A stretch of 64,000 bases of DNA from an archaeon (GCA_035289625.1 DATDWP010000016.1:11871-75870), one strand, 5' to 3'. Shown: positions 85 through 62,454, counted from the first letter of the stretch. Notes: a model not told the origin generated them from the letters alone. Made by a program: numbers and translations.

Positions 85-1599
85 ATGCAAATGCCACTGC
101 TTGCCATAATATTTTCACTCATTTTCCTTTTTCCACTAGCAAGTGCTGATATTACTTCTGGGCTTGTTGGGTATTGGAAACTGGATGAAAATTCCGGGCT
201 TATTGCTGCGGATTCTAGCGGCAGGGGCAATGATGGGAATTTAAACGGCGGGATCACGTGGCAAGCTGGTTATTCAAATTCTGATTTGAATTTTGATGGT
301 AGTGATGATTATGTGAGTATTATTGGGGCAACGGGAGGAACTTCGGGTGCTAGCACCATGTCATTTTGGATAAAAACAACTTCGCCATCATCTACCCAAG
401 TTGCAGTTGGCATATCCTCAGGAGATACAGCCAACGGTTTTGTTTGTGGTGTATACCAGTCACGGATTCTTTGTAATGCCAAAAATAATGTCAATGGAAA
501 GACTAGTTCAGTGATTGACACTGGGTGGCACCACATCGTTGCAATTAGAGATTCTTCACCAGCCGTTACAACAATTTATGTTGATGGAACTGATGTAACT
601 GGCACAACAAATACTAGCTGGTATAGTATCGGCTCCACTGCGCAGACACGCATTGGTCGGGCAATGGTAGATGGAGACGGTTCATTTCTCGCTGGACAAT
701 TGGATGATATACGAGTATACAGTCGCGCCCTCTCCGCCGGCGATGTCAACCAACTTTATTTTTGCCAACCACCAAGTGCTTCAGGAACTGATTGGATAAT
801 TGATGGCAACACTACCTGCGAGCTTGGAACCAACTATGATCAAAATTTAGTGGGGCAGTGGAAATTTGACGAAGGAAGAGGAGCGGTCGCAAAAGATTTT
901 AGTGGGAATGGAAACGATGGAAACCTTACCTCTGGGCCTGTGCGGATAACAAACGGAAAACTAGGCGGCGCACTGCAATTTGATGGGACTGATGATTATG
1001 TTTCTTTGTCTCTTGTAACCGGAACGACTTATACGTATTCAGGATGGATAAAACCGGACTCACAAACTGATAGTTACGGGTCGGTTTTTTCAAACAGCTC
1101 TGGTGCTCCCGGAATTTATTACCGTGGTTCGGGTGCAGGTGCAAATGCCGGTAATATTGACTATTATGTTTCAGGCAGCCAACTGTCCAATACTGCACTT
1201 ACCAATGGACAATGGCAACATATTGCGCTAGTGGTAACTTCAGGAGGCGCAACATTCTATTTGAATGGAGCATCCAATGGAACAGCTGCTAGCGTAGCTA
1301 ATTTTACAGTTGACCGTATGGGCGACGATGTTGCTTCTGAAAATTTCAAAGGTTATCTAGACGATGTTAGGTTTTACAACCGCGCTCTCAGCGCAACCGA
1401 TGTCAATAATTTGTACAAAGACACAATGGTTGCGCGGGTTGGAAACAATTTTGATCTACGCAACGGCTCACTAACAATTCTTTCAAGCAATGGAGTTGAA
1501 TTGCAGCCAACAAAAAAAGCAATCCTGCGAATAAAACCCACAAACCGCCACCAACTAATAATCCAAAAACTAGGAAGACTCATAATAAGGAAAAACTAA
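85..1599 (+). CDS. Secreted protein with two LamG / concanavalin-A-like (Laminin_G_3) domains
   Basis: Signal peptide MQMPLLAIIFSLIFLFPLASA. Two ~200-aa halves each end in the Laminin_G_3 hallmark LDD[IV]R[VF]Y.RALSA.DVN.LY. Confidence 0.75.
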   Translation: MQMPLLAIIFSLIFLFPLASADITSGLVGYWKLDENSGLIAADSSGRGNDGNLNGGITWQAGYSNSDLNFDGSDDYVSIIGATGGTSGASTMSFWIKTTSPSSTQVAVGISSGDTANGFVCGVYQSRILCNAKNNVNGKTSSVIDTGWHHIVAIRDSSPAVTTIYVDGTDVTGTTNTSWYSIGSTAQTRIGRAMVDGDGSFLAGQLDDIRVYSRALSAGDVNQLYFCQPPSASGTDWIIDGNTTCELGTNYDQNLVGQWKFDEGRGAVAKDFSGNGNDGNLTSGPVRITNGKLGGALQFDGTDDYVSLSLVTGTTYTYSGWIKPDSQTDSYGSVFSNSSGAPGIYYRGSGAGANAGNIDYYVSGSQLSNTALTNGQWQHIALVVTSGGATFYLNGASNGTAASVANFTVDRMGDDVASENFKGYLDDVRFYNRALSATDVNNLYKDTMVARVGNNFDLRNGSLTILSSNGVELQPTKKAILRIKPTNRHQLIIQKLGRLIIRKN

Positions 1600-1654
1600 A
1601 ATGCAAAACCTAACCAAAATAAAATGCATTTTGCAAAGTAGAAAAGTTCCTGAT

Positions 1655-2449
1655 TTATAGCAGGAGTCCGCCGAGCACTGAACCTATTGCGTATGAAATA
1701 AGTGCAGTAGCTCCGCCTATTAGGAGCATTTCAAATCCTGCAACAACCCAATGTTTTGCAATTACAAGCGAGCGCAATGACCCAACCGCAAATATTGTTG
1801 CAAAAGTGAGCACAAACGCAATTGGGAATGCAATTGAACTTTCAATAGGGGTAAAGAGCGAATATACAAAAATTAGCAAAGGTATAAGCCCTGCTGCAAC
1901 AAATGCAGCATAGGTGTAGAGCCCTGCTTTTATTGGATCTTTTTGATTAGGTATTAGCCCAAGCTCATCAGCCATCATTGTATCTATCCAAACGCTTTTT
2001 TTGGAAGTGATAAGTTCAACTAGGGTTTCAAGGTTTTTCCCGCTATACCCTTTGCGGGAATATATTTGCCGGATTTCTTCCCTCTCGCCTTGCGGATAGT
2101 TTTCAACTTCCCACTCCTCTCTTTTACGCTCTGCGTTGTAGTAGGATTTTTCAGAATTTTTTGAAAGGTAGTTTCCAACCGCCATTGAAAGGCCATCAGC
2201 TAGAAGGTTTGCAAACCCTAAAACTACTATTACTCCGCCCCCGAGCCCGGCACCGGCTGAACCTGCAACAATTGCAAATGTTGTAACAATCCCATCAAGG
2301 GCGCCATAGACCATGTCCCCGACATATTCGCCTTCGCCTTGGGAGTGGTGATCTTTTTCAAATGCATCTTTTGAGTGGGCGGATTTGGTAGCGCTGAGGT
2401 CGAATTTTTTAAAAGCCTCTTGCGCTTCTTTTACCCTTGTTTTTGCCAT
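1655..2449 (-). CDS. VIT1/CCC1-family Fe/Mn transporter
   Basis: GDMVYGALDGIVTTFAIVAGSAGAG motif, central charged helical insert, C-terminal TM bundle. Confidence 0.85.
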   Translation of the reverse strand: MAKTRVKEAQEAFKKFDLSATKSAHSKDAFEKDHHSQGEGEYVGDMVYGALDGIVTTFAIVAGSAGAGLGGGVIVVLGFANLLADGLSMAVGNYLSKNSEKSYYNAERKREEWEVENYPQGEREEIRQIYSRKGYSGKNLETLVELITSKKSVWIDTMMADELGLIPNQKDPIKAGLYTYAAFVAAGLIPLLIFVYSLFTPIESSIAFPIAFVLTFATIFAVGSLRSLVIAKHWVVAGFEMLLIGGATALISYAIGSVLGGLLL

Positions 2450-2487
2450 GGAAATATTATATAAGAAAGGAATTTAACCAGCGCAGA

Positions 2488-2892
2488 TCAATTTTTTGCG
2501 CTAAAAATTCTTTTGAGGGTCAGTATTATGACAACAACAACTGCGGTAAATATTGCAGAATAGAAAAAGCCCAGGCCTATTGCAATTCCGATTGCAGAAA
2601 GCACCCATAGATCAGCTGCGGTTGTGAGGCCGTGAACCTTATCATCAGCTCTAAAAATTGCTCCTGCCCCCAAAAACCCAATTCCTGTAACTATGCCTGC
2701 TGCAATCCTGCTAGGGTCTTGCGCGCCTATAAATTCAATTGAAACTATTGTAAAAAGTGTTGAACCAAGGCAGATTAGCATGTGGGTTCGAAATCCGGCC
2801 GGGACTGATTCTGATTCGCGCTGGAAACCAATAAGCGCGCCGATAACAACGGCAACAAGAAGCCTAACTAATACTTCGCCTTCTGCAATCAT
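2488..2892 (-). CDS. MgtC/SapB-family membrane protein
   Basis: VVIGALIGFQRE...GFRTHMLICLGSTLFT signature; 134 aa, multi-TM. Confidence 0.8.
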   Translation of the reverse strand: MIAEGEVLVRLLVAVVIGALIGFQRESESVPAGFRTHMLICLGSTLFTIVSIEFIGAQDPSRIAAGIVTGIGFLGAGAIFRADDKVHGLTTAADLWVLSAIGIAIGLGFFYSAIFTAVVVVIILTLKRIFSAKN

Positions 2893-3060
2893 GCAATAGA
2901 TTGAAATTAATTCCCATTAATAATGGTTTCGCGTAAAACAGCCTTGTTCAAAAATCCCGACCTGATGCATGTCCTTATGACGACTCAAAATGGCATATGC
3001 CCATTTAGGCCATTTGTTTTATTGGAAAATATTTTTTTAACAGGCATATACAAAACTTGA

Positions 3061-3768
3061 TCACTTGAGCGGAACTTCGATTAGAAGTATTTTTGAATTT
3101 GTTAGGGCGCTAATTTCCAATTTTTTTTCATTTGTAATTTGGGCGGCATCTCGCTTTTGCAGCTCTTTTCCCAAAGTAGCAACCGACCCTTCAATTACAA
3201 AAAGGTAAAATCCATGCCCCGGACTTTTTGAATCGGCAACAACTTTTTTCGAGCTTTCAAGTTCTGATAAATAAAATGAGGCATTTTGGCGGATGTAGAG
3301 CGCCTTCTTACTCTCTTGACCTACAACTTCTAGCAATTTATTTTTCATATCTTTTTGGGAAAATGCTTTTTGCGAATACGTAGGCTCAATGTCCTGCTCT
3401 TTTGGATAAACCCAAATCTGCAAAAGTGAAGTACTCTCTAATTTGGAAGGGTTAAATTCTGAGTGCACAATCCCGCTTCCCGCGCTCATATGCTGCACGT
3501 CCCCAGGTTTTATCACTCCGTGGCTTCCCATGCTATCGCGGTGCTCAAGCGCTCCACTTAGAACAATTGTAACTATTTCCATATTTTCATGCGGGTGCAT
3601 ATCAAAGCCGCGTCCTGGAGCAATTATATCATCATTTAGAACGCGAAGGGTGCCAAAACCCATTCTTTTCGGATTATAATAATCGGCAAAGCTAAAGCTA
3701 AAATTGCTGGAAAGCCAGCCATGATCAGAGTGCCCCCTCTCATTTGAGCGCTGTATATCTATTGCCAT
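3061..3768 (-). CDS. Pirin-family cupin protein
   Basis: HPHENMEIVTIVLSGALEHRDSMG...GDVQHMSAGSGIVHSE matches the pirin N-terminal cupin metal site. Confidence 0.85.
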   Translation of the reverse strand: MAIDIQRSNERGHSDHGWLSSNFSFSFADYYNPKRMGFGTLRVLNDDIIAPGRGFDMHPHENMEIVTIVLSGALEHRDSMGSHGVIKPGDVQHMSAGSGIVHSEFNPSKLESTSLLQIWVYPKEQDIEPTYSQKAFSQKDMKNKLLEVVGQESKKALYIRQNASFYLSELESSKKVVADSKSPGHGFYLFVIEGSVATLGKELQKRDAAQITNEKKLEISALTNSKILLIEVPLK

Positions 3769-4062
3769 TATACTATAGTGAAGGGATTTGCTTATAGAAT
3801 ATAATGTTATTGTATTAGATCTTCAATGGAAAGGTATGAACTAGAGGCCACATGGAATGGCAAAGAGGATGTAGATTACTTTTATATAGTTTTTAGCCCA
3901 CTAATGTATTGTAGTGATTTTTGATGTATCAGAAAACTATTGAAAAGGAAGAGGGATATTCTAAGGCGCAGAAAGAGGAGATTAAAAAGGCACTTGAAGG
4001 CCTGCGTGTTTTTAGAAATAGCCCTAAAGTGATGTCTTACCTTAAGAAGAGGCAAGCAGAAC

Positions 4063-4542
4063 TTAAGGGAAAAACTGATCAATAGAATAGAAAGCAGGCG
4101 TTCTGAACGCATTTTTCTCATTTACTTTCATATAAGCCTTGATTGCAAGGCTTGATTTCATTGAATGGGCATCGTCGGAAATTAGTATGTCAAGATTCTG
4201 AATGCTTGCGAGTGCAACAATTCTAAAGTCATTAATCATTTTCTTTTTTGAAATTCCACCTTCATATTCTCTCCAGTATTCTTCGGCGATAAATTCAACA
4301 ACAGGCCCCACAAGATATGAATGCTTGCCGGTAAACTTATCATATACTGAAAGAAGTGAATTCCTGAAACTTTTTCCCAAATATTTTACATCTGGCGGTA
4401 TCTCGCGCAATTCCTTTCTTATAATACTACACCCATAGACTACTGTTCCGTCTTCTTGCACCATTTTCTTCAGAATATCAATATAGTGAAGAAAAATATG
4501 CTCATAAACATTGGTATCAAACATTACTCTCCTCAGTTTCAC
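4063..4542 (-). CDS. PIN-fold-like nuclease (putative)
   Basis: N-terminal VMFDTNVY and C-terminal LDILISDD acidic motifs resemble PIN domains; size 159 aa. Confidence 0.45.
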   Translation of the reverse strand: MKLRRVMFDTNVYEHIFLHYIDILKKMVQEDGTVVYGCSIIRKELREIPPDVKYLGKSFRNSLLSVYDKFTGKHSYLVGPVVEFIAEEYWREYEGGISKKKMINDFRIVALASIQNLDILISDDAHSMKSSLAIKAYMKVNEKNAFRTPAFYSIDQFFP

Positions 4543-15843: not shown

Positions 15844-16172
15844 CTATTTCACCTCAGAACAAAAAATTTGCAAAAATCAATTTATAAAAAGATTCACAAT
15901 AATTTAATCGCAATAACTCAATTGCAAAAAATGTGTAAGAAAAATCATGCAGATAGGCAAAGTATTGGGACAACAGAGAGTTCGGAAAGCAAATATTGTA
16001 AATAAAATGAAACGCAAATAATTCAGATTATAAAGTAAAGCAGCATAATAGTTAGTAAAGTAAACCGGTGTTGTGGGGCACAAAGGTTTTTATATTACAA
16101 TTCGATAGATTAATTCCTTTATACACTAAAGGAAAAAACCAGGCTCAAAAATATCTAAATAGGGGGATTACA

Positions 16173-19100
16173 ATGGCGGAAAAAAAATCAACTACTCATG
16201 GGACTCAAAAAACAAAAAACAACAAAGGCCTTGCAATACCCAGGGTTTTTACAAAAAAAGGCACTGACCCTCTTGAAACAATAGATTACGAATTTAGGAC
16301 ATCGATAATAAAAAACCCCGATGGCAGCACTGTTTTTGAAATGAAAGATATCGAAATACCAAAGCAGTGGACGCAGATAGCAACCGATATTATTGCGCAA
16401 AAATATTTTAGAAAAGCAGGCGTTCCGCAATTTGACAAGTACGCAAAACCGCTTCTTGACGAAAACGGCAAACAAATCTTAGGCCCTGAGAGGAGCGCTC
16501 GCCAGGTAGTTAATAGGCTAGCACAGACCTGGAGATGGTGGGGGGAAAAATACGGATATTTTGCAAGTGAAAATGATGCTAATGCTTTTGAAGATGAATT
16601 AAAATTCATGCTAATAAACCAGTACGCAGCGCCAAATAGCCCGCAGTGGTTTAACACGGGGCTCTATCACTCATATGGGATAAATGGCCCGGCGCAGGGG
16701 CACTATTTTGTAAATCCCGATAGTGGAATTTTGGAAAAATCAACAGATGCCTACTCACACCCACAACCACATGCGTGCGGACGCTATGACACATTGCTTT
16801 TTACTGAAAAGGGAATAATTCAACTTGGAAAAATGGTTGAAGAGAAGATGATTGGGGTAAAAGTATTTGACGGACAGCAGTTTGCCAGGGTAATTGCGGT
16901 TAAGGATAATGGCGTGAAAAAGGTTTTCAGGGCATCACTTTCAAACGGAAATTATATAGACTTCACAGATGACCATTTGGTCTTATCTGCAAAGACAAGA
17001 GACCACGCATTTGAATGGATTGAACTAAAGGACATTCTTGGATATAAGGTGCAGCAAGCTCTAAACTTGGAGCAATTACAAGGCCAGATTGTGGAAAATG
17101 TAAATGGGGCAGCCATGCAGAAGAGCATGGAAACCGAAATTGAGTTGGCAAAGGCAGAACTTTCCGGATGGATTGTTGGCGATGGGTATTTTGGCCAATA
17201 TGGCAAGACTACAATGCTCGGGGTAATAACAATCAATGATGACGAGTTTGAACATGTTAAGGGCCTATTTGAGAAAGTGCTTGGTGGATTTACAGTAACC
17301 GTGAAAAGGGAAATAAGCCCTACATATAGAATAGTGAGGCGGGACTTTAAAAGTGTGAGAGGATTTGTAAAAGAGTACGGACTTGAAAAGAAGTCGCTTA
17401 CTGCAAGCGTGCCAAATAAAATAATGCAGTCTGGTGCCGAGGTACAGCGGGCATTTTTGAGGGCACTTTTCCAGGCAGATGGATGTGTTAGGATTAGAAA
17501 TAACGGCAATTCAGGGGACGTTGTACTTACAACAATTTCTGAAGAACTTGCACATCAGGTGCAAAATGTTCTCCTCAATAACGGCATCTACTCAAGAGTG
17601 AGCCTCTGCAACGATTCGAGAAACGATAGGCATACACAGTACCATGTTGAAATCGCTTACTATTCAGAGAGGGTTAAATTTGAGAACCTAATTGGTTTTA
17701 TTTCAGAGGACAAAATCAACAAGTTGCAACGCCTTAATTTAACAGTAGACGGAAAAGAGAAGCCTATAATGTCACTTGAAACCGTATCCGCGATTGAATA
17801 CCTAGGGCAAGAACCTGTGTACGATATACAAACAGAGAGCGGAAAATTTACCGCAAACGGAGTAGTTGTCCATAATTGTTTCATACAATCAGTGAGTGAT
17901 GATTTGGTAAATGAAGGCGGAATTTTTGATCTTGTAACGCGCGAGGCGCGGATTTTCAAATACGGCTCCGGGACAGGGAGCAATTTTTCAATGCTAAGAG
18001 GAAAAGGAGAACCACTCTCAGGCGGCGGAGTGAGTTCGGGCCTTATGTCTTTTCTTAAAATTTTTGACAGGGCAGCGGGGGCAATAAAATCCGGAGGCAC
18101 CACGCGAAGGGCTGCAAAAATGGTAATTCTAAATGTTGATCACCCGGATATTGAAGAATTTGTAATGTGGAAAGTAATTGAGGAACAAAAAGTTGCAGCA
18201 ATGGTTGCAGGAAGCAAGAGTTGCAGCTACTATCTAAATGAAATAATGAGGCTAGCGCATGAAGGCAAATCAACTGATGTTAGAAAGAATAAAGAACTCG
18301 GGAGAACAATTCGCAGCGCCCTCAAATTCAATGTTCCCGCAAGCTATATTTTCAGGGCCTTGCAGCTAGCAGAGCAGGGGGAAACCAGCATTGATTTTAG
18401 AACATATGATACAAATTACAATTCAGACGCGTACGCAACAGTATCGGGGCAGAATTCAAACAATACAGTTAGGATTAGCAATGATTTTATCGAAGCTGTA
18501 CTAAATGATTCTGATTGGGAGTTAAAATTTAGGACAAATAAGAACATTACCCGCAAAATCAAGGCAAGGGATCTGTGGAACAAAATAGCAATTGCGGCCT
18601 GGCACTCGGCTGACCCCGGAGTGCAATATGATGACACAATAAATGAATGGCACACCTGCCCAAATGATGGAAGGATAAATGCAACAAACCCCTGCGTAAC
18701 CGGGGATACCTTAGTGCTTACAAAGGAAAACGGGTGGCAGAGGATAGACAAACTTGTCGGAAAGGAAATAGAATTAATCACAAACATAGATTCAATGAGC
18801 ACTGGTCTTACTAAAGGGTCATTTGAAACAGGCATAAAACCGGTTTATACTCTTACAACTAACGCCGGTTATGAAATAAAGCTCACTGCAGACCATAAAG
18901 TTTATACCGCAAACCGCGGGTTTGTACAGGCAGTAGAACTGACAAAAGATGATTTTGTGTGCCTACCTTCAGAGAACGTTGCTGAAATAAAAGAGCCAAC
19001 TGATAAGGACTTTTTCAGGCTTTTAGGGCTCTACCTTGGTGACGGGTGCGGCTCGAGGGGGCAAATACAGCTTACAATGGATAAGGCTGAAGAGAAGGTA

Positions 19101-21836
19101 CTCCAGAGGATGGTTGATTATTACAATAGGACCTTTGAGAAAATTACACACAAAAACTGGAACAGCAAAGTATTGCAGACACAGACAACTTCGAAAATCA
19201 ATGTCCTTGCAAAGAGTGCAATTGAAAAAATTTCCCCATTTATTGACCTTTCACAAAAATCACATGAAAAAACAATTTCAGAAGAAATTTTTTCACTCGG
19301 CCTCGGAGAGCAAAAATACATCCTCCAAGGGCTGTTTACAACTGATGGCACGGTTGCAAATTACAGCGAAAAAAGCCAATATGTTGCCCTTGATTCAACA
19401 AGCCTTGAACTCCTAAAAGGGACGCAGATAATATTGCTTGGGTTTGGAATAAAGAGCAAAATTTACAAAAACAGACGGGCAGGAAAACTTGTTGCACTGC
19501 TGCCAGGCAGCAACAGGAAGCTAAAAGAGTATAACGTGAGGGAGATGCATAGCCTGCGCATATCAAGGAGCTCACGGTTGGTGTTTGAAAAGTTAATCGG
19601 CTTTATGGATGAATCGTATAAAGGGGCACAGTTAGCTGAGCTTAATGCCACTGTTTCAGCGTATGAGGATAAACCATTTGACCGTGTGAAATCCCTTGAC
19701 TACATTGGAGAAGAAAAAGTTTATGATCTGACAGAGCCGTTCACGCATTCATTCATAGCAAACGGGGTTTCGGTGCACAATTGCTCAGAATATGTATTTT
19801 TGGATGACACTGCATGCAATCTTGCTTCAATAAACCTGATGCATTTTTTGAATGAAGGGGGCGAATTCCAAGTTGAACAGTTCTGCCATGCAACAAGGCT
19901 ATGGACCATGGTTCTTGAAATTAGCGTACTGATGGCCCACTTCCCTTCAAAAGAAATTGCACAAAAGAGCTATGACTATAGGACTCTAGGGTTAGGGTAT
20001 GCAAATTTGGGAACCCTTTTGATGGTTAATGGAATTCCATATGATTCAGATGAAGGAAGGGCAATTTCCGGGGCGCTTAGCGCAATAATGTGCGGCGAAT
20101 CTTATGCTACATCAGCTGAAATGGCAGGTGCAATCGGATCATTCCCGCGCTATGAGGCAAATAGATCGGAAATGCTAAAGGTAATAAGAAACCACAAAAG
20201 GGCAGCATACAATGCAAAGCCTTCAGAATATGAAGGCCTTACAATAAAACCTGTAGGAATTGAACCTGAAAAGTGCCCAAAAAAATTACTAAGTGCTGCG
20301 CGCACAGCTTGGGATAGGGCGCTAACTTTAGGGGAAAAGTATGGTTATAGGAACGCGCAAGTAACAGTAATTGCGCCCACCGGAACAATTGGGCTTGTAA
20401 TGGATTGTGATACTACCGGAATTGAACCTGATTTTGCAATGGTCAAATTCAAAAAGCTCGCAGGCGGGGGATATTTTAAAATAGTAAACCAGGCCCTAAC
20501 CCGCGCTTTGCAAAAACTTGCTTACCCAAAAGGCCAGATTGATGAAATTATAAAATATGTACGCGGCCACGGGACCCTTGCGGGCTGTCCTGCAATAAAT
20601 AAAGAAAGCCTTTTAGCTAAAGGGTTTACCAATGAGAAAATCGGTCTAATTGAATCCCAACTTGGCAATGTATTTGAATTAAAATTTGCATTCAACAAAT
20701 GGAGCATTGGAAAGGACTTTTGCATCCAACTGGGTTTTACTGAAAAGCAGCTAAATGACCCAGAATTTGATATGCTAAAAGAATTCGGGTTCTCAAAGCA
20801 GGAAATTGATGCGGCAAATGATTATGTGTGCGGCACAATGACAATAGAAGGCGCGCCATTTTTGCGCGAAGAGCACTACCCAATATTTGATTGCGCTTCC
20901 AAGTGCGGCAAGAAAGGGAAAAGGTTCATCCACCACATGGGGCATATAAAAATGATGGCAGCAGCCCAACCGTTTATTTCAGGGGCAATTAGCAAAACAA
21001 TCAATATGCCAAACCATTCAACTGTTGAGGAAATAAAGGATGCTTATTTGCAATCCTGGCAGCTAATGATAAAGGCAAATGCGCTCTACCGCGATGGCAG
21101 CAAGCTCTCACAGCCCCTCAATACAGTCTCTAGTGAAGATGAAATTGCATGGCTTGGTTCAGAAGAGGATATTGATGAAACAATTGGCCCGGCACAAATG
21201 CAGCAAAAAATTGAAATGAAATTGCAAAAAAAATCACTCCCTGCAAAAAGAAGGGGATTTGTACAAGAAGCAACAGTTGGAGGACATAAGGTTTTCATAA
21301 AAACAGGAGAGTACCCTGACGGGAATCTGGGGGAAATATTTATTGACATGTATAAAGAAGGGGCATCTTATAGGGCCCTTATGAACTGCTTTGCCGTAGC
21401 GGTTTCAAAGGCCTTGCAATACGGAGTGCCGCTTGAAGAATTTGTGGATTCTTTCACCTTCACGCGCTTTGAACCATCAGGAATTGTAAAGGGGCACGAT
21501 TCGATAAAGAATTCCACCTCAATAATCGACTACATCTTCAGGGTACTTGGATATGAGTATTTGGGAAGAACAGATTTTGTGCACATAAAACCAATAGAAG
21601 AGTCGCCGGAAGGGGAGCAGAAGAAAATAGTTCCGCAAAATAGATCAGAACTTGCAGTTCCAAAGAGCATGGAAGATCTTGATAAACCAACTTCAGAAGA
21701 AGAGCTCAAAATACGCGCAGCACGCAGCAAGGGATACACTGGCGATCAGTGCGGCTCATGCGGCTCTATGAAGGTGAAGAGGAACGGCGCGTGCACGGTG
21801 TGTGATGATTGCGGTGCAACTAGCGGCTGCTCTTAA
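16173..21836 (+). CDS. nrdJ: Class II (adenosylcobalamin-dependent) ribonucleotide reductase NrdJ, interrupted by two inteins; Cys-rich C-terminal tail
   Basis: Extein blocks QPHA|CFIQSV and TNP|CSEYVFL (radical Cys), [15 protein letters not shown]; tail [25 protein letters not shown] 16173 with a GGGGGA Shine-Dalgarno-like box. Confidence 0.9.
16776..17876 (+). mobile_element. Intein 1 in NrdJ (367 aa) with LAGLIDADG homing endonuclease
   Basis: Starts CGRYDTLLF, block B TDDH, LAGLIDADG motifs [12 protein letters not shown] and [12 protein letters not shown], ends VVVHN followed by +1 Cys. Confidence 0.9.
18693..19781 (+). mobile_element. Intein 2 in NrdJ (363 aa) with LAGLIDADG homing endonuclease, inserted at the NPC active-site cysteine
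   Basis: Starts CVTGDTLVL, block [17 protein letters not shown] and [12 protein letters not shown], ends VSVHN followed by +1 Cys of CSEY. Confidence 0.9.
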
Positions 21837-34830: not shown

Positions 34831-35165
34831 TTTGAGGAGCAGGAATTGGAAATGTAATTTTTCAATTATATATAACACATAGTGGCACAAAAAATATTTT
34901 CAAGGCAAAATTAAGCATTATTTGCCAAAAAAATACTAAATAACACTTTTTTAATGAAAAAAGACTTTGTTAATGGGTTATTGGGTTTTGAGGCACATTC
35001 ACACCTACGACTATATTGACGCATGGACTTAACAACCTTATTTTTTGAAACGGAGTGTTAATAGAGCTCTATACATAAAAGAGAACGTATATAAAGGACT
35101 TTTACTGTAGTGAATAGTGGATCTTACTTTTATTTCAAAGCCAAGATTCGTTCAGGGGTGAACAA

Positions 35166-36233
35166 ATGAAATCGTTAATAGAAAATGCAGTAAGTACTCC
35201 TAATGAAAAACGGGAGGACAAAATGGAAGAATTCGGGACACCAAAAATAATGGTGATAGGATGCGGGGGCGCAGGATGCAATGCAGTGAATAGGATTGCA
35301 AATATGAACATTGCAGGAGCGCAACTTGTTGCAATCAATACCGATAAGCAGCACCTTGCAATAATAAATGATGAAATAACAAAAATCCTGATAGGAAAAT
35401 CTGTAACAAGAGGACTTGGAGCCGGCGGGTATCCAGAAATCGGCGCAAAGGCAGCAGAAGTTAGCAGGGCAGCTTTGGAAGAAGTAATGGACGGAGTTGA
35501 CATGCTCTTTATTTCAACAGGAATGGGCGGAGGAACAGGGACAGGTTCAGCGCCAATTGTTGCGCAGATCGCAAAAGAGCAAGGAGCAATTGTAATTGCA
35601 ATTGTAACATACCCGTTTGCACTGGAAAAGGCAAGGCTCATAAAAGCAGAAGAAGGAATTGAAGCGCTACGGCAAGTTAGCGACACAGTTGTTGTAATCG
35701 ACAACAATAGGCTAGTTGAACTCGTCCCGAATTTGCCGATACAAGACGCATTCAAAGTCGCAGATGAAGTGATAGCAAGAACAGTGCGCGGTATAACAGA
35801 AACAATCACGCAGCCTTCACTAATCAACCTTGACTATGCTGATGTTCGCGCTATAATGAGCAACAAGGGCCTTTCAGTAATTGCTGTTGGCGAAAGTAAA
35901 TCAGTTAACAAGGTAGAAGAAGTGGTTGAGGACACACTGAAAAATTCACTTCTTGATGTTGACATCAACGGAGCAACAGGCGTACTCATACATATAACAG
36001 GAGGGCCTGAACTAACCCTCGGAGAAGCAAACGGAATTGGGGAAAAATTAACAGAACATATCGACCCAAAAGCCGCAGTAATCTGGGGAGCTAGGGTTGA
36101 TACGACCTTTGATAACAAGCTCGAAGTGATCGCAATCTTTACAGGAGTGCACAGCCCATACATAAAAGGAGCCTCAACAAATATCGGAAGAGGATCAAAA
36201 CCAAAAGGACATCTTGAAATAGATTACATGTAA
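35166..36233 (+). CDS. ftsZ: Cell division GTPase FtsZ
   Basis: GCGGAGCNAVNR, GMGGGTGTGSAP tubulin signature; Shine-Dalgarno GGGGTGA at 35155-35161. Confidence 0.95.
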   Translation: MKSLIENAVSTPNEKREDKMEEFGTPKIMVIGCGGAGCNAVNRIANMNIAGAQLVAINTDKQHLAIINDEITKILIGKSVTRGLGAGGYPEIGAKAAEVSRAALEEVMDGVDMLFISTGMGGGTGTGSAPIVAQIAKEQGAIVIAIVTYPFALEKARLIKAEEGIEALRQVSDTVVVIDNNRLVELVPNLPIQDAFKVADEVIARTVRGITETITQPSLINLDYADVRAIMSNKGLSVIAVGESKSVNKVEEVVEDTLKNSLLDVDINGATGVLIHITGGPELTLGEANGIGEKLTEHIDPKAAVIWGARVDTTFDNKLEVIAIFTGVHSPYIKGASTNIGRGSKPKGHLEIDYM

Positions 36234-46788: not shown

Positions 46789-47448
46789 ATGCCACATTCA
46801 CTCTCTGCTTCCACTCTTTCACTCTTCAAAGATTGCCCTCGCTGCTTTTGGATGCATTTACGGAAAAAAATTAAAAGGCCACAAGGGATTTTCCCATCTC
46901 TGCCATCCGGCATTGACCTTGTACTAAAAGAACATTTTGATTCCTACTCAAAAATTGGTGCTCTCCCCCCAGAACTTTCAAACATTGAAGGAAAAGTGCA
47001 GCTTTTTGATGATGAAAAACTTCTTGCAAAGTGGAGGGATTTTAGAAGCGGGCTTATTTGGAAAGATGGAACTGGGAATGTGCTGCGCGGGGCATTGGAC
47101 AATTTGCTGGTAGAAGATGGGGATTTTATTGTTCTTGATTACAAAACGCGCGGCTACCCGCGAAAAGATGACACTCACACTTACTACCAGCACCAGCTTG
47201 ACATATACAATCTGCTTTTGCAAAAAAACGGTTTTCCGACTAAAAATTATGCATACCTTCTTTTCTACCACCCAATAAATATAGGTGCAAATGGACATTT
47301 TACATTCCAGGCTGATTTGGTAAAAGTTAATGTGCAAGTTCGAAATGCCGTTGAACTTTTTGAAAAAGCCCTTCAAACCCTTGATGGGCAAAAACCCGAA
47401 TCTTCCGAACAATGCTCATTTTGCAACTGGGCAAAAATGCACAAATAA
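46789..47448 (+). CDS. PD-(D/E)XK nuclease, Cas4/RecB-like, with four flanking Cys
   Basis: N-terminal CPRCFW, core D...VLDYKT, C-terminal CSFCNW. Confidence 0.6.
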   Translation: MPHSLSASTLSLFKDCPRCFWMHLRKKIKRPQGIFPSLPSGIDLVLKEHFDSYSKIGALPPELSNIEGKVQLFDDEKLLAKWRDFRSGLIWKDGTGNVLRGALDNLLVEDGDFIVLDYKTRGYPRKDDTHTYYQHQLDIYNLLLQKNGFPTKNYAYLLFYHPINIGANGHFTFQADLVKVNVQVRNAVELFEKALQTLDGQKPESSEQCSFCNWAKMHK

Positions 47449-49322: not shown

Positions 49323-49411
49323 AACCAGATCTTTTTTGACTAGACTTTTTCCAAATCTTGCCACAGAGCAATGTATATATTCTCTACTTCCGTCTATTAA
49401 TTGGGTTTTTA

Positions 49412-52400
49412 ATGGCTAGGGAAAAGGAAGAAAAAAAGGCTCTTGAAGAGAAACCGCGCGAATTTGGCGAAGGTGAGGCAATAGAGCGAACCCAGGTAAA
49501 CCCGCAAGATACCGATATTTTTGATGAGTTTTTAAAAGGCAAAAACAAGGAAAAGGCGGCAAAAGTTCGGCAGGCAATCGATAAGAACGATGAAGATCTG
49601 CCAGACAATGAGGATATTGAAATGGAAGAAGATGACGAGCAAGAGGATGAAGAAGACTCTAAATCCAAAATAGTTGAAACGGAGCAAGAGCCTTCAGAAG
49701 AAGAAAAACCAAAAAGGCAAAGAAAGCCCCGCAAAAAAGCTGCTCCTAAAGTAGATGCAAAAAGTGAAGGATTTTCTAATAAAGCGCATGACGATGAATC
49801 TGAAGGCATAAAACTGAAAGGAAAAGACCCGGCACAGATATCAAAAGAGCAAGAAGAAGATACATTAGATTCTGAAGAAAAAATAGGGGAAGAAGCAGAA
49901 GTTTCGCAAAAAATCGAAGAAGAAACTGAAGGCGAAGAGATTTTAGGCGATGATGAACCGGGAGAGTGGACTGATGAGGAATTTGATTATGATATTGACC
50001 ATGATGCAAAAGAACCGGAGGAATTAACTAAACCAATTGTGCCAACGCGCGAGGAAATAAAAAAAACAGTGCTGGCAAAAGCGAGCATGGCATCCGGGGG
50101 AGTTGACGAAATAGATTTGGCGGCAGAAAAACTCCAGTTCCTTTCAGACCCGCAGAAAAAATCTGTTTTTATCGGAAGAAAGGCAAGCATTTACAAAAAA
50201 TATGGCTTTGAAGCAGCTCTGCAACTCGGAAAGGTGCAGGAAAAAGACCTTGAGGGCTGGGATGTTTATCTTGATTCCCTAAACCCGCATGTTGTATTTG
50301 TTTGCGGAGCGCGAGGATCCGGAAAGTGCTTAACCGGAGACACGCTAATTACTCTTGACTCAGGCGAGGTTGTGCCAATAAGGGAGCTTGAGAATAGGAA
50401 TGAAAAAATATTTGCCGTCGATAATAAATTGAAAATTACCTCTGCAATTAGAACGGGATTCTATAAAAGAACGGTCAGCAAAATATTGAAAATAAAAATG
50501 CAAAGTGGAAAAGAAATTGAATTAACTCCTGAACACCCTCTCCTTACAATAAACGGCTGGAAGCCAGCTGAAGAATTTTCCCGGGGAGATAGGATAGCAA
50601 CTCCGCGGATATTGCCTGCATTCGGAAATACCAAAATGAAAGAATGCGATGTCAAACTACTTGCATACTTAATCGCAGAAGGGCATCTGGACAATCAATT
50701 TGTTTTATTCAGCAATATGAACGAAAAAATAAACAGTGAATTCAAAGAAAGTGTTTTACAATTTGACCCCAATTTAAGAGTAGAACTACATTCAAAAGAA
50801 GGGTGTTTTAGAGTTGCACAGATAAAAAAGAAAGTAGATTTGAGCCATATTGTCAGAGATTCTACTACAGGAAGGTTTACTGATAAAGGTTACATTCTAA
50901 TGGAAAGAAGCTCAATAAGAAAATGGCTTGAAAGTATTGGTTTATACGGAAAGCTTGCCGGAGAAAAATTTATTCCAAAAGAAATAATGAAACTGGAAAA
51001 AGGCCAGCTAGCCCTTTTCCTAAACAGACTTTTCAGCTGTGATGGATCCATATATAGGATCAACAAGGGAAAAAGCTGGGCTGTTTCTATTGGGTTCACT
51101 TCTAAAAAACTTACACAGCAGGTTCAACATTTGATTGCAAGGTATGGAGTAATTTCCACTTTCAGGAACAAAATAAATAGGCAACACGGACGGGACATAC
51201 CAAATTACGAAGTTGTTCTATATGGAGAAAACGTAATCAAGTACATACAGGAAATCGGATTTTTTGGCTATAAAGAAGAAAGAGCCGCAATTGCCCTCGA
51301 GGAAATGGCAGCACAAATTAGAAATCCTAATTTGGACACTATCCCAATAGAAGTATGGAATAAATTCCAAGTGAGAAATTGGAAGCAGATGGCAAGAGAG
51401 CTAGGATATGCCCCACAATCGTTCCACAACACAAGGAATTATTCCCCATCAAGGGAAAAGCTAGCAAAAATGGCAAGAATTGAGGGAAATTCAGGAATAG
51501 AAATGCTTGCCCAATCTGACATTTACTGGGACATCATAAAAGAAATAACTGAAATTAATCAAGAAACGGAAGTTTATGATATAACTGTACCTGAACTGCA
51601 CAACTTTGTTGCAAATGATATAATAGTGCATAACTCCTACGTTCTTGGTGTAATAGCTGAAGAACTAGCAGACAAAAACAAAAATGTAGGAATAATTGTT
51701 GTCGACCCTATTGGAGTATTTTGGTCAATGAGATTTGCAAATAAGGATGAGAAGGAACTTGAAAAATTAAAAGAATACGGACTTGAGGCGAAAGGGCTCT
51801 CGGGCCTTAAAGTATTCATTCCGGAAGGCATGAAAGACCAGGTGCCAAAATCAACATATGATGCCGGATTTGCAATACAGCCATCCCTTCTAACCGGCGA
51901 GGATTGGGCCTTAACATTTGGTGTTGATAGGTTTTCTGTTTCAGGGCTCTTGTTAGATAAGGTTTTGAAAAAAGTCGAAACCGGCTATAAAAAAACTACT
52001 ACAGAAGAGAGTGCAAAACCCGGGGAAAAAGTAAAACCTAAAGGAAAGAAATACGCGCTCGAGGATCTGATAGAGTGCCTTGAAACTGATTCTGAATTAA
52101 ACAGCCGGGACAAAGGATATAAACAGGATTCAATTAGGGCAATTATCAGCAGATTTGAAGCTGCAAAGAGCTGGGGGATATTCCACGAAAAAGGGACTCC
52201 GTTAGGAGAACTCTCCCGCGAGGGGCAGATGACAATACTTGACACCTCATTTTTGGAGGATAATGTAACCGCGCTTGTAATCGGAATACTTGCAAGAAGA
52301 TTGCTCTCTGCAAGAAAAATCGGGACAAGAAAAGAAGCTGCAAACAAATTCAAATCACTAAACATGAACGAACTCTTAGAACTCGAAGTCCCGCCAACTT

Positions 52401-53935
52401 GGCTCTTTATTGATGAAGCGCACACATTAATTCCGAGCGGAAATGAAATGACCGCGGCAACTGCCGGACTTATCGAATATGTAAAGCAAGGAAGAAGGCC
52501 AGGCCTTTCACTCGTATTTGCAACACAGCAGCCATCTGCAATTAATACAAAAGTTTTGAGCCAATTAGACGTCATAATGACCCACAAGCTTATTTTTGAT
52601 GATGACATTAAAGCGGTGTTCAAAAGGACCCCGACAATAATTCCACGAAAATACCGCAACCCAAATTTTATAAAAACACTGCCCGTAGGGGTTGCAGTTA
52701 CTGGGGATAGGCGCGAGGAGACAAGCAGGGCATTTGTTATGGGGATTCGCCCGCGCAAAAGCCAGCACGAGGGAAGGGATGCTGAAACAACCGGGCTATC
52801 TGAACAGGTGGATTCAGCTCAGGCACAAAAAATTGCATTTGAAATGCTTTTGAAAAATGTAAAAGAGGAAAAGAGAATTGATATGGATAAAGCAAAACTT
52901 GCAGTAGAAACCCTTAATGCAAAATACAGAACACATGTGGATTTTGAAAAGCTACTAAAAGAACTTGAGGCAAAAGGCCTTGAGGTTTCTGAGAGCTCAA
53001 TAGCAGTTGCCGGATTTGCTGCAATGGCACAAGAAGAAGAGGCAGAAGATGAAGTTTTAGATGAAGAGCAAACACAAGAACAGCAAGCACTCGGACTTGA
53101 TAGAGAAGAGCTTGTCCCGCTAAAAAGAGGCGAAGAATCTGAAGATGGGCAAGAAGGGACAGACGCAAAAACAAATCCACTCGAACTTGATCTTCTATCT
53201 CTCCCGCAGAGAATTAATGAGCAGGACGCGAGAAGAGTTGTTGAAGGAGTTAGAAAGAAGGCCTTTTTTGGAATTTTGGGAAATGCCGAAAGAATTGAGT
53301 GGATAAAATTGCGCCACTACCCGATATGGAGGATCAAATTTGATGCCCCTACAAGAAGAGGGGAATTTATTTCACGCGAATGTTTTGTCAATTCACTCTC
53401 AGGCGAATTTGTGCACTTCAAGGACGGGCAGTTTATCGAATCAAAAGGGCTTGTGCAAATTAATGATTTGGGTGATGAGGAAGCAATGACCCTCAAACTT
53501 TTGCAAAAGCGCGAAATGCTGCTAGAGGAAATTATGGCACAGACACAAATGGATGAAGCCCGCCTTAGAAGGGTTTTGCAAAAATTGGTGGATCGCGCGC
53601 TTGTTGCAAAAACACAAAAGAACGCGCGGGAAATATTTTCACTCAAAGAAAAACTCGACCTTCCCCCAAGCGAGAGGCATGAACTATTAGGTTCACTTTC
53701 AACCCTTCCATTTGTTAGAACTGAAGCGCTTAGCATCGAGAGGGAGAAGTACTCAAGGGAGGATATAACAAAAGCGCTGCGAAAGCTATGGGGAAGTATT
53801 CTTGTAAAAAAAATCGAGCCGCTCTATAAACCCATTTGGCATGTAGTGCTATCCGAGGATGCAAAAGAGAGAACGGTTATAATTGATGCGGTGAACGGAA
53901 AAATTATTAGTGAAAAGGCAAATACTACTACATAA
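49412..53935 (+). CDS. Giant HerA/FtsK-superfamily (DUF87-like) P-loop ATPase with acidic/Lys-rich N-terminal region, an intein, and a C-terminal wHTH-like region
   Basis: Split Walker A GARGSGK|SY, IIVVDPIGVF, Walker B WLFIDEAHTLIP, LVFATQQPSAI. ATG 49412 preferred over TTG 49358. Confidence 0.8.
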   Translation: MAREKEEKKALEEKPREFGEGEAIERTQVNPQDTDIFDEFLKGKNKEKAAKVRQAIDKNDEDLPDNEDIEMEEDDEQEDEEDSKSKIVETEQEPSEEEKPKRQRKPRKKAAPKVDAKSEGFSNKAHDDESEGIKLKGKDPAQISKEQEEDTLDSEEKIGEEAEVSQKIEEETEGEEILGDDEPGEWTDEEFDYDIDHDAKEPEELTKPIVPTREEIKKTVLAKASMASGGVDEIDLAAEKLQFLSDPQKKSVFIGRKASIYKKYGFEAALQLGKVQEKDLEGWDVYLDSLNPHVVFVCGARGSGKCLTGDTLITLDSGEVVPIRELENRNEKIFAVDNKLKITSAIRTGFYKRTVSKILKIKMQSGKEIELTPEHPLLTINGWKPAEEFSRGDRIATPRILPAFGNTKMKECDVKLLAYLIAEGHLDNQFVLFSNMNEKINSEFKESVLQFDPNLRVELHSKEGCFRVAQIKKKVDLSHIVRDSTTGRFTDKGYILMERSSIRKWLESIGLYGKLAGEKFIPKEIMKLEKGQLALFLNRLFSCDGSIYRINKGKSWAVSIGFTSKKLTQQVQHLIARYGVISTFRNKINRQHGRDIPNYEVVLYGENVIKYIQEIGFFGYKEERAAIALEEMAAQIRNPNLDTIPIEVWNKFQVRNWKQMARELGYAPQSFHNTRNYSPSREKLAKMARIEGNSGIEMLAQSDIYWDIIKEITEINQETEVYDITVPELHNFVANDIIVHNSYVLGVIAEELADKNKNVGIIVVDPIGVFWSMRFANKDEKELEKLKEYGLEAKGLSGLKVFIPEGMKDQVPKSTYDAGFAIQPSLLTGEDWALTFGVDRFSVSGLLLDKVLKKVETGYKKTTTEESAKPGEKVKPKGKKYALEDLIECLETDSELNSRDKGYKQDSIRAIISRFEAAKSWGIFHEKGTPLGELSREGQMTILDTSFLEDNVTALVIGILARRLLSARKIGTRKEAANKFKSLNMNELLELEVPPTWLFIDEAHTLIPSGNEMTAATAGLIEYVKQGRRPGLSLVFATQQPSAINTKVLSQLDVIMTHKLIFDDDIKAVFKRTPTIIPRKYRNPNFIKTLPVGVAVTGDRREETSRAFVMGIRPRKSQHEGRDAETTGLSEQVDSAQAQKIAFEMLLKNVKEEKRIDMDKAKLAVETLNAKYRTHVDFEKLLKELEAKGLEVSESSIAVAGFAAMAQEEEAEDEVLDEEQTQEQQALGLDREELVPLKRGEESEDGQEGTDAKTNPLELDLLSLPQRINEQDARRVVEGVRKKAFFGILGNAERIEWIKLRHYPIWRIKFDAPTRRGEFISRECFVNSLSGEFVHFKDGQFIESKGLVQINDLGDEEAMTLKLLQKREMLLEEIMAQTQMDEARLRRVLQKLVDRALVAKTQKNAREIFSLKEKLDLPPSERHELLGSLSTLPFVRTEALSIEREKYSREDITKALRKLWGSILVKKIEPLYKPIWHVVLSEDAKERTVIIDAVNGKIISEKANTTT
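50327..51634 (+). mobile_element. Intein (436 aa) with LAGLIDADG endonuclease inserted in the Walker A loop
   Basis: Starts CLTGDTLITL, block B TPEH, LLAYLIAEGHLD and FLNRLFSCDGSIY, ends DIIVHN followed by +1 Ser. Confidence 0.9.
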
Positions 53936-58799: not shown

Positions 58800-59084
58800 A
58801 TGAAAATTGAACTCTCGGATTTTGTTGCAAAGCCGTGTAAATCAAGGATTGCATTCGAATTTGTGCCAAAGCAAGATTATGGTCTTGATTTGCAAGTAGT
58901 TGCAAAAAAATTGCGCGAGCAGGAAGTGTTTGTTGAAATCGAAACCCCGTATCTTCTGATGTTAAAATTTGCAGGAAGGGATGTTTCGATTTTCAAGAGC
59001 TCAAAAATTATTGTCAAATCGACAAATGATGAGCAAGAGGCTAGCAGGATTGCAAAAGGGCTTGTTGAGAAGATGAATAATTAA
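58800..59084 (+). CDS. Stand-alone single TBP-fold-like domain protein (94 aa)
   Basis: GLDLQVVAKKL...LMLKFAGRDVSIFKSSKIIVKSTNDEQEASRIAKGLVEKM aligns by eye to one TBP repeat (LDL..IA...., [18 protein letters not shown]....A..YA..). Confidence 0.45.
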   Translation: MKIELSDFVAKPCKSRIAFEFVPKQDYGLDLQVVAKKLREQEVFVEIETPYLLMLKFAGRDVSIFKSSKIIVKSTNDEQEASRIAKGLVEKMNN

Positions 59085-61266: not shown

Positions 61267-62088
61267 TTAATCCTTTTTCCACTTCTCAACTTCTGCAACC
61301 GGCCCTGAGAGTATTATTATGTCCGGATATACCTGCGCTTTTAGAACCGATGAGAAAATATTTACGGGTTTTATTGAGCGCAAAGCGCTTTTTTCAAATA
61401 CCCCGGGAAGTATTTGCAATTGGGATTTTTGCACGGGAAAAGAATTGTTTTTTACTTTACCTAAAAATCCGAGGGCAAGAATTTCAAGAAGCGCGGGGTC
61501 CTGGCACTCAACCATTAATTCAGAATCCGGCTGTGAGGAAAAAATTTCATTTAATTTTGTAAAAGAAACAGGGTTTGATTGCCTTGCAAAAGAATCATTG
61601 AACTCCAGGTCTTTTAGGGATTTTATCTGGTCTGAAAAAACTTTTGAAATGTATTCCAAATGCCGCACTTTTTTTTCAAGTTCGCCGCAAATCCCTTCAA
61701 GGTCTGAAATTGAAAAATCCAGGGAGCTCTTTGCGGTTTTGAGCAAGTCGCGGTCAGACCTTCCCCTCTCAATCAGTATTTGCAATTTTTCAACAACCGA
61801 ATCGATTTTATCAACAGGGTGCTTTTCTTTTAGGGTTGCATTTAGCGCCAGCACTAACTTGTTTTTTATTTCAGAATATATTTCCCCCTCACCCTTGTCC
61901 ATTAAATAGTAGCGGTTCTGCTTGCGCGTGACAAGCCCAAAAATAGTGAGGTCTTTTAGCGAACGCGAAAGGGCGGCGCGCGCTGAATTTGCATTTGAAT
62001 AAGATGAAGCGAATTTATTGAGAAGGGAGTTATAATCAATCCCGGGGTTTTGCTTTACAATTAGAAGGATTGCATTTCTAGTGGTCAT
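61267..62088 (-). CDS. wHTH-containing hypothetical protein
   Basis: N-terminal ILLIVKQNPGIDYNSLLNKF...LKDLTIFGLVTRKQNRYYL winged-helix pattern; ATG 62088. Confidence 0.5.
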   Translation of the reverse strand: MTTRNAILLIVKQNPGIDYNSLLNKFASSYSNANSARAALSRSLKDLTIFGLVTRKQNRYYLMDKGEGEIYSEIKNKLVLALNATLKEKHPVDKIDSVVEKLQILIERGRSDRDLLKTAKSSLDFSISDLEGICGELEKKVRHLEYISKVFSDQIKSLKDLEFNDSFARQSNPVSFTKLNEIFSSQPDSELMVECQDPALLEILALGFLGKVKNNSFPVQKSQLQILPGVFEKSALRSIKPVNIFSSVLKAQVYPDIIILSGPVAEVEKWKKD

Positions 62089-62454
62089 CCAAACAATTAA
62101 CAAAAAAAGGAATTATAAAGTGTTGTTAAGAGGCCTTGGGTTTATAGCAGACAGTTAAAATAATTCGGTTGATTTTTCATGTCTGCTACCAGCGCAAACC
62201 GCTCCAAAAACCGAAAAACTTTCGCGGTTTGCTATAGTTAACATTGGCCTAGATGGCCCACCTAGCTTTGAAAATGAATTTCAAATAACTCCAAAAACCT
62301 CCATTATTTCTTGCCTCAAAATGCCAAACAGGCATAAAAATAATTTCAGAAATAGCCACTAACCCGGATTTTGTGAATTTTCACCAAAAATCTCCCCCCC
62401 CGTTTTCAACAGTTTTTTAAAGGGGTTCTGCCTTTATCTAAGCGAGAATTTACC

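Follow-up and report, generated by a model that had tools for sequence, protein, structure and literature searches.

We analysed a window of archaeal DNA, 64,000 nucleotides (nt) long (GCA_035289625.1 DATDWP010000016.1:11871-75870), in which a signal recognition particle RNA of archaeal type is present, and characterised the gene at positions 49412 to 53935. Its product is a 1507-residue precursor with a motor predicted to have the HerA fold, interrupted in the Walker A loop by an intein and extended at both ends by additional domains. The gene is a single-copy core housekeeping gene of the Iainarchaeota and belongs to a patchily pan-archaeal family. We read the protein, with a probability of roughly 0.55, as a housekeeping DNA translocase that is independent of NurA.

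According to this reading, protein splicing would remove the intein and rejoin the Walker A loop, giving a product of 1071 residues. The spliced product would be a ring ATPase of the HerA clade, most likely a hexamer pumping double-stranded DNA with ATP, as judged from its fold and motifs, and it would work without NurA, with accessory parts of its own instead of a nuclease partner. A short N-terminal motif on an acidic flexible arm of ~200 residues, which includes a basic patch, may act as a tether. Directly behind the motor is a winged-helix-like domain, then a second acidic linker, and the tail, in which a winged helix-turn-helix (wHTH) is framed by duplicated PepSY-like modules, would recognise DNA or a partner.

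Reading frame, intein and domain order

The plus-strand frame is open from 49358 to 53935 when begun at a TTG. The ATG at 49412 gives 1507 amino acids (aa), and this start is backed by the N-termini of orthologues; P0002, an intein-free orthologue (76% identical) from which the structure model was made, begins at the equivalent position. The features of the gene, with residues numbered on the precursor, are as follows.

49412..53935 (+), complete gene for the precursor, 1507 aa and a stop codon; the extein accounts for 1071 aa
49412..50101 (+), residues 1-230, disordered N-terminal region rich in acidic residues and Lys (E 22.6%, K 13.5%, D 10.9%; net charge -38)
49514..49534 (+), DIFDEFL, a short linear motif at residues 35-41 that is conserved in the family as D-[LIVM]-F-[DE]-[DE]-h-[FL], often after ERVE
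49703..49750 (+), residues 98-113, basic patch KPKRQRKPRKKAAPK lying within that acidic stretch
50102..50326 (+), structured ATPase portion within the N-extein, with the first half of Walker A (GARGSGK) at its end
50327..51634 (+), intein of 436 aa (residues 306-741) with a LAGLIDADG homing-endonuclease domain; Cys1, block B TPEH, HN at the end and Ser at +1
51635..52771 (+), remainder of the HerA-fold ATPase in the C-extein, with IIVVDPIG, Walker B FIDEAH, KQGRRPG, ATQQPS and RPRKSQHEGRD
52814..53008 (+), post-motor winged-helix-like domain, residues 1135-1199; order H-E-H-H-E-E from the model's secondary structure, pLDDT (predicted local distance difference test) 93-98
53015..53182 (+), long helix, then acidic disordered linker, residues 1202-1257
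53192..53440 (+), PepSY-like beta-rich module 1, residues 1261-1343, containing the ...SGEFVHF motif
53450..53659 (+), wHTH of ArsR/MarR/TrmB type, residues 1347-1416, with the LRRVLQKLVDRALV helix
53681..53920 (+), PepSY-like beta-rich module 2, residues 1424-1503, containing IIDAVNGKII

The first-pass annotation, which was made from the sequence alone, had proposed a spliced protein of 1071 aa, and removal of residues 306-741 yields exactly that length. The inserted segment matched the Pfam families Intein_splicing (4.9e-28) and LAGLIDADG_3 (4.4e-15), and splits the Walker A loop between K and S, so that GARGSGK is followed by C...VHN and then by SYVLG. It starts with CLTGD, contains the TPEH block, ends with VHN before S, and carries two LAGLIDADG-type motifs (LAYLIAEG and FLNRLFSCDGS). 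All the marks of a LAGLIDADG intein were found, namely Cys1, TxxH, HN, the +1 nucleophile, the two motifs and a conserved host site; it is an intein of the LAGLIDADG homing-endonuclease type as far as sequence can tell, and splicing is predicted. The host site was uninterrupted (G[AS]RGSGK-SY) in 113 of the best 120 of 598 homologues, held an intein in 2, and was missing from the stored sequence in 5. A frameshift or gene-fusion artefact was ruled out by the contigs that four public DNA runs have over the gene, those of run X3 spanning both intein junctions with 0 differences.

The motor

The ATPase region matched DUF87 (5.7e-10) and HerA_C (3.4e-5) in Pfam. In a Foldseek search with the P0002 model, HerA structures ranked first (9x1m_A, E 1e-15; 4d2i_B, E 2.4e-14, TM(target) 0.58) among 116 matches with E <= 0.001, and pLDDT in the ATPase region of the model was ~70-90. 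Walker A, Walker B, the GRRPG/GRKFG arginine region and QQPS/QRPS of P0002 aligned residue by residue with the HerA proteins of Thermococcus and Sulfolobus (9x1l, 4d2i), and the window protein itself has GARGSGK and S at either end of the intein, WLFIDEAH, KQGRRPG and ATQQPS. Almost all invariant columns of the family lie inside the motor. Judged on the model, the protein belongs at fold level to the HerA clade of the FtsK-HerA superfamily, as the description of a HerA/FtsK-like ATPase in the first-pass annotation had anticipated.

That annotation had also set the protein apart from the usual HerA, and the NCBIfam HerA models agree: they scored 27-31 bits against cut-offs of 800-970 (NF040819, 31.1 vs 970; NF040937, 28.5 vs 800), so the protein, with its predicted HerA fold, is by these scores not a HerA orthologue. 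Canonical archaeal HerA, of the HerA-NurA(-Mre11-Rad50) system (PDB 4d2i, 9x1l/9x1m), shares the fold and the aligned Walker A/B motifs, arginine region and QxPS, but identity in the structural alignments was ~13-19% and the two fall into separate clades of the tree. The window protein adds the disordered arm, the winged-helix-like domain and the PepSY/wHTH/PepSY tail, and lacks an adjacent NurA. The two may also differ ahead of the P-loop, where HerA has a full N-terminal barrel and the P0002 model has ~55 structured residues, folded as four short strands and a single helix, before the P-loop strand.

Bacterial FtsK/SpoIIIE belongs to the same superfamily and has an analogous build, with an N-terminal localisation element, a long low-complexity linker, a motor and a C-terminal winged helix. 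The family differs from it in having a motor of HerA type: at E <= 0.01, 2 of the 40 family members scanned matched PF01580 (best 0.0021) and the window protein was not among its matches, Pfam gave no family of the FtsK gamma domain at E values of up to 5, and no hydrophobic membrane segment was seen in the translation, which was inspected by eye without a transmembrane predictor. The likeness to FtsK would be at most a functional analogy, not membership.

Regions outside the motor

The acidic, Lys-rich N-terminus of ~230 aa noted in the first reading was confirmed by composition and net charge, and the equivalent part of the P0002 model is disordered (pLDDT <50). A strict regular expression for the short motif fitted 66 of 112 homologues, with near-variants seen by inspection in most others, and 69 of the 112 have a comparable basic patch in this region (at least 6 K/R in a 10-residue window). 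Among the 1239 open reading frames (ORFs) of the genome, no other carries a DIFDEFL-type motif near a terminus, and the motif scan of these ORFs gave no hub-binding pattern. Likeness of the motif to the C-terminal peptides of this genome's FtsZ proteins or to a PCNA-binding box was weak by eye, and no claim is made for either.

The last 387 residues were modelled separately with a mean pLDDT of 88.9, in the order winged-helix-like unit, long helix, acidic disordered linker, beta-rich module, wHTH and second beta-rich module. Three parts of this region had been described in the first-pass annotation, and each was recovered. The second acidic linker (residues 1201-1256) has a net charge of -15 and is disordered in the model. 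The wHTH superposed on NolR (4omy) with Z 12.0 and a root-mean-square deviation of 1.1 A over 62 residues (VIA-align), with dozens of ArsR/MarR rows at Z 10-12; its score against Pfam TrmB, 19.5 bits with a cut-off of 25.6, marks a match of fold and not family membership. The duplication of the beta-rich module was seen by hhalign, which aligned module 1 to module 2 with a probability of 95.2% (E 7e-9; both controls <1%), and the two modules are, on this sequence comparison, true duplicates homologous to each other.

Module 2 scored 24.1 bits against PepSY (PF03413) when searched within a 324-aa piece and 22.0 bits within a 766-aa piece, the Pfam cut-off being 24, and 8 of the 40 family members scanned matched PepSY with E <= 0.01, the best at 7.8e-8. 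Module 1 is tied to PepSY solely through its hhalign match to module 2. Foldseek with the tail model matched the wHTH alone, at E of at least 5e-3, and a wide structure comparison was saturated by the wHTH. Sequence searches of the PDB with the tail found nothing below E 0.07.

Distribution of the family

A search with the C-extein collected 598 proteins, the best 120 of which were 48-76% identical, mostly over 99% of the query, and 755-1296 residues long; the named ones among these 120 came from 'archaeon' or Diapherotrites records. The phylum set examined was that of the Iainarchaeota (Candidatus Iainarchaeum / Diapherotrites), inside which one record labelled Micrarchaeota lies. Of the 215 genomes (species), 211 had a match, including all 58 high-quality genomes, and 77 of the 79 genera were represented. 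Identity was 45-76% along the entire C-extein, and almost every match listed was full length. The protein had been called unusual in the first reading, a view that does not survive this count, which shows a strongly conserved family. Orthologues assigned by source name to Hadarchaeota and Theionarchaea (Hadarchaeales among them) have motors 47-51% identical and the same tail, and a search from a Theionarchaea member added records from Methanofastidiosa, 'Methanomicrobia', 'Euryarchaeota' and one Hodarchaeaceae (Asgard).

The PepSY/wHTH tail is rare, with only 88 representative proteins among 1.84 billion. Because 29 of 36 scanned tail-bearing representatives also matched DUF87 or HerA_C, the tail goes with this kind of motor. 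The architecture of motor, winged helix and PepSY-wHTH-PepSY is without a solved or described counterpart. The outcome that the first-pass annotation had named as its refutation, placement of the full length in an already characterised family, did not occur. A literature search, which left the supplements of two ESCRT (endosomal sorting complexes required for transport) and divisome papers outside its range, found no description of the family or its architecture. The words HerA, FtsK, DUF87 and translocase are all absent from the main text of one ESCRT survey (PMC10936438).

Paralogues and the canonical HerA-NurA pair

The genome (1.26 Mb, 94.6% complete) holds four further HerA-superfamily genes. 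One, on contig 28, is a canonical HerA of 1149 aa including a 613-aa intein; the only NurA of the genome (E 3.2e-11) is two genes from it, with a Rad50-like SMC_N gene close by. The first-pass annotation had reported no NurA beside the window gene and had suggested looking for a distant NurA, Mre11 or Rad50; the pair on contig 28 accounts for that absence. Two DUF87 paralogues are on contigs 21 and 10. The fourth gene, on contig 1 (1593-4187, minus strand), had been missed by the Pfam-based genome scan. It encodes 864 aa, or ~428 aa of ATPase once its intein is removed, and is 28.6% identical to the window motor (E 7.6e-48). The listed relatives of this short form are ~431 aa long and 63-84% identical to it, the named ones being Diapherotrites or 'archaeon' records.

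In a quick maximum-likelihood tree (47 rows, 698 columns), the long form to which the window protein belongs (24 rows, SH-aLRT (Shimodaira-Hasegawa-like approximate likelihood-ratio test) 97) was sister (SH-aLRT 99) to the short form (13 rows), and both stood apart from canonical HerA and the other paralogues. The short form, a likewise uncharacterised DUF87 ATPase, shares with the window protein the GRxxxxxKYG...G lead-in, the RPRxS/TxHxG ending and an intein at the same Walker A site, but lacks the acidic arm, the winged helix and the tail.

Gene neighbourhoods and alternative functions

Neighbourhoods were compared at 21 Iainarchaeota loci (the window and 20 others), 15 full-length loci from metagenomes and 13 loci of the short form. 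No conserved partner gene and no recurrent nuclease neighbour was found in any of the three sets. The recurring neighbours at the 21 loci were a convergent downstream block, in 8-10 loci, in which a hexapeptide-repeat transferase (Pfam) is accompanied by two candidate glmM and glmS genes, and ribosomal protein L44e, near the gene in 7. The neighbours at the 15 metagenome loci were housekeeping genes: a translation-factor GTPase, glutamine synthetase, mevalonate-pathway genes and Cdc48. We regard the gene as a housekeeping gene because it is present in 211 of the 215 genomes and has neighbours of this kind. At the 13 short-form loci no partner recurred steadily; a SurA_N-like gene was found at 4, Translin and M48 peptidase at 2 each, and PCNA at 1.

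Two ORFs without a Pfam family lie downstream in the window, each recurring at 8 of the 21 loci. The first encodes 94 aa (58800-59084, plus strand) and the second 278 aa (61267-62103, minus strand); the latter had no Pfam or PDB match.

The earlier statement that no nuclease or helicase partner is adjacent stands in so far as no partner is conserved. It requires amendment for the window itself, where a PD-(D/E)XK nuclease gene (46789-47448, plus strand, 219 aa; PDDEXK_1, 4.9e-13) is found 2 kilobases (kb) upstream on the same strand. This nuclease has Cys pairs at both ends (CPRC..., ...CSFC) and reads like an iron-sulfur nuclease of Cas4 type.

The presence of that gene bears on the best surviving alternative, in which the protein would be a helicase of DNA repair or recombination, in effect an additional HerA that resects ends or drives branch migration, served by a nuclease encoded elsewhere, such as the NurA of contig 28 or a Cas4-like PD-(D/E)XK protein. 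The HerA fold and motifs would suit such a role, as would the PCNA neighbour at one short-form locus. We consider it improbable, given that the upstream nuclease belongs to no cluster common to at least 3 of the 21 loci, that the NurA of the genome adjoins its own HerA, and that none of the 21, 15 and 13 loci showed a nuclease that recurs.

Slightly less probable again is an ATP-driven regulator of the nucleoid or of transcription, or a protein remodeller, in which the wHTH/PepSY tail would be the working part while the ring, instead of pumping chromosomes, remodelled protein-DNA complexes. Two domains of winged-helix type speak for it, modules of PepSY type are known to bind proteins or to act as inhibitors, and JGI labels some members 'predicted transcriptional regulator'. 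The motor is nevertheless the best-conserved part of the protein, no target gene is conserved next to it at the 21 loci, and the characterised members of the superfamily move nucleic acids.

The first-pass annotation had speculated on cell-to-cell transfer of DNA or protein in an episymbiont. The FtsK-HerA superfamily does include secretion ATPases of VirB4/VirD4 type, and weak Pfam and NCBIfam echoes of Zot, VirB4 and CedD were obtained, all far below the cut-offs. Against this, the translation showed no membrane segment by eye, no membrane, pilus or secretion gene was conserved beside the gene at the 21 and 15 loci, and the sources named for orthologues include Theionarchaea, Methanofastidiosa and Hadarchaeales, which lie outside DPANN. 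The two membrane genes that the annotation had placed upstream are there, both with a Ferric_reduct domain, but are in no cluster common to at least 3 of the 21 loci. We therefore regard a transfer motor as very unlikely. An anti-virus HerA is the least likely of all: the complexes SIR2-HerA and DUF4297-HerA are among the structural matches, these and TdpAB share the HerA fold, and the NCBIfam antiphage HerA models gave 27-28 bits, but the cut-offs of those models are 800-850 bits, the gene is core (211 of 215 genomes) unlike the patchy genes of defence, and no effector neighbour was seen (the PADLOC library was not scanned).

A possible link to division or segregation

According to Cortez et al. 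(2010, PMC2958812), FtsK is missing from archaea, which may rely on a functional analogue instead. A 2026 preprint (10.64898/2026.07.16.738847) reports HVO_1301, a HerA-domain protein, at midcell in Haloferax volcanii; with a HerA domain in common, it is a possible relative of the window family. In one lineage, relatives of the window gene also lie between ESCRT-III genes. On two metagenome contigs (L155:6582-12066 and L156:6581-12083) we found the array Snf7 - ATPase - ORF345 - Snf7 on one strand with gaps of 16-99 nt. The Snf7 E-values were 1e-17 to 1e-19, and the two ATPases (1012 and 1013 aa, 72% identical to each other) fall in a subclade of the long form in the tree. ORF345 (345 aa) has no Pfam family, and an ORF with a weak MIT domain lies near the array. 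An SMC-type gene close to the ATPase gene, as seen at 6 of the 21 Iainarchaeota loci, also points towards division.

It is because archaea lack FtsK, relatives sit between ESCRT-III genes in one lineage and HVO_1301 is reported at midcell that a pump for division or segregation is the most attractive specific role. We accordingly propose, tentatively, that the protein handles chromosomal DNA in connection with segregation or division, doing the work of FtsK where FtsK is absent. It is more doubtful that the family is the archaeal functional counterpart of FtsK in full, that is, a hexameric DNA pump of HerA type at the division site, held there by the N-terminal motif on the acidic arm, with a tail that reads or grips chromosomal DNA and possibly talks to XerA. 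Such a pump would clear and resolve chromosomes before the cell closes, and the ESCRT-III-flanked relatives and the Iainarchaeota of FtsZ/SepF type would use the same motor with different division machineries.

The window genome has three FtsZ genes, one SepF (contig 22) and a XerA-like recombinase. The FtsZ genes are located as follows.

window ~35118-36233 (+), FtsZ
contig 16, 79375-80547 (+), FtsZ
contig 10, 96458-97570 (-), FtsZ

Two of them are on the contig of the ATPase gene, ~14 kb to either side of it.

A number of observations weigh against a DNA translocase or its connection with division. The ESCRT-III link comes from one lineage, represented by two related contigs, whose ATPases have a different, helical N-terminal domain and no PepSY/wHTH tail; on the related L174 and L175, a weak ORF345 homologue is directly behind the ATPase and Snf7 is missing. 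Snf7 was not detected in the window genome, and with FtsZ and SepF present any division link there would use different machinery. At the 21 Iainarchaeota loci no same-strand gene is conserved beside the ATPase gene, and the proximity of an SMC_N gene (within five genes at 6 of the 21) is a weak sign. Columns from the shared tail were retained in the tree and may have raised the support of the long-form clade artificially. The wHTH has a net charge of 0, wHTH domains also serve protein-protein contacts, and the substrate could be other than DNA. Since most archaeal lineages lack the family, or have not been seen to have it, it cannot be a general archaeal answer to the missing FtsK.

Distribution and possible spread of the intein

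Inteins at exactly the same site were found at 8 of 49 orthologous loci from the phylum, 55-89% identical to that of the window, one of them ending at a contig end. Such a sporadic occurrence is in keeping with a mobile homing intein. Run X3 also has a contig from a related organism of the same habitat that agrees with the window up to the insertion point (~50265-50316) and then reads like an intein-free Walker A; with 4-5 letter differences in ~50 it is not the same strain. Its presence beside the intein-bearing allele indicates that both alleles coexist in the habitat.

Three HerA-superfamily genes of the genome have an intein at the same position between GxGK and S: the window gene, the contig 1 gene (1593-4187, minus strand) and the canonical HerA of contig 28 (L058:3193-6639, minus strand). 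The contig 1 intein is 47.6% identical to the window intein over all 436 residues. This pattern suggests that the intein spread between paralogous sites, for which these genes would make a neat case.

Further inteins were observed or suspected outside the family. A class II (B12-dependent) ribonucleotide reductase of 1922 aa in the window (16068-21836, plus strand) has two, with two Intein_splicing and two LAGLIDADG_3 stretches. On contig 9 (~74205-75149, plus strand) the SMC_N match of a 1086-aa frame is split and the gap weakly resembles the C-terminal end of the intein described here; this SMC-type gene may hold a further P-loop intein.

Significance

How DNA leaves the closing division plane, and how dif sites meet, in archaea, which have no FtsK, is an open question (PMC2958812). 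A conserved HerA-type motor without a partner, with domains of DNA-binding type, a tether-like arm and relatives embedded among ESCRT-III genes, would be a concrete candidate for this task.

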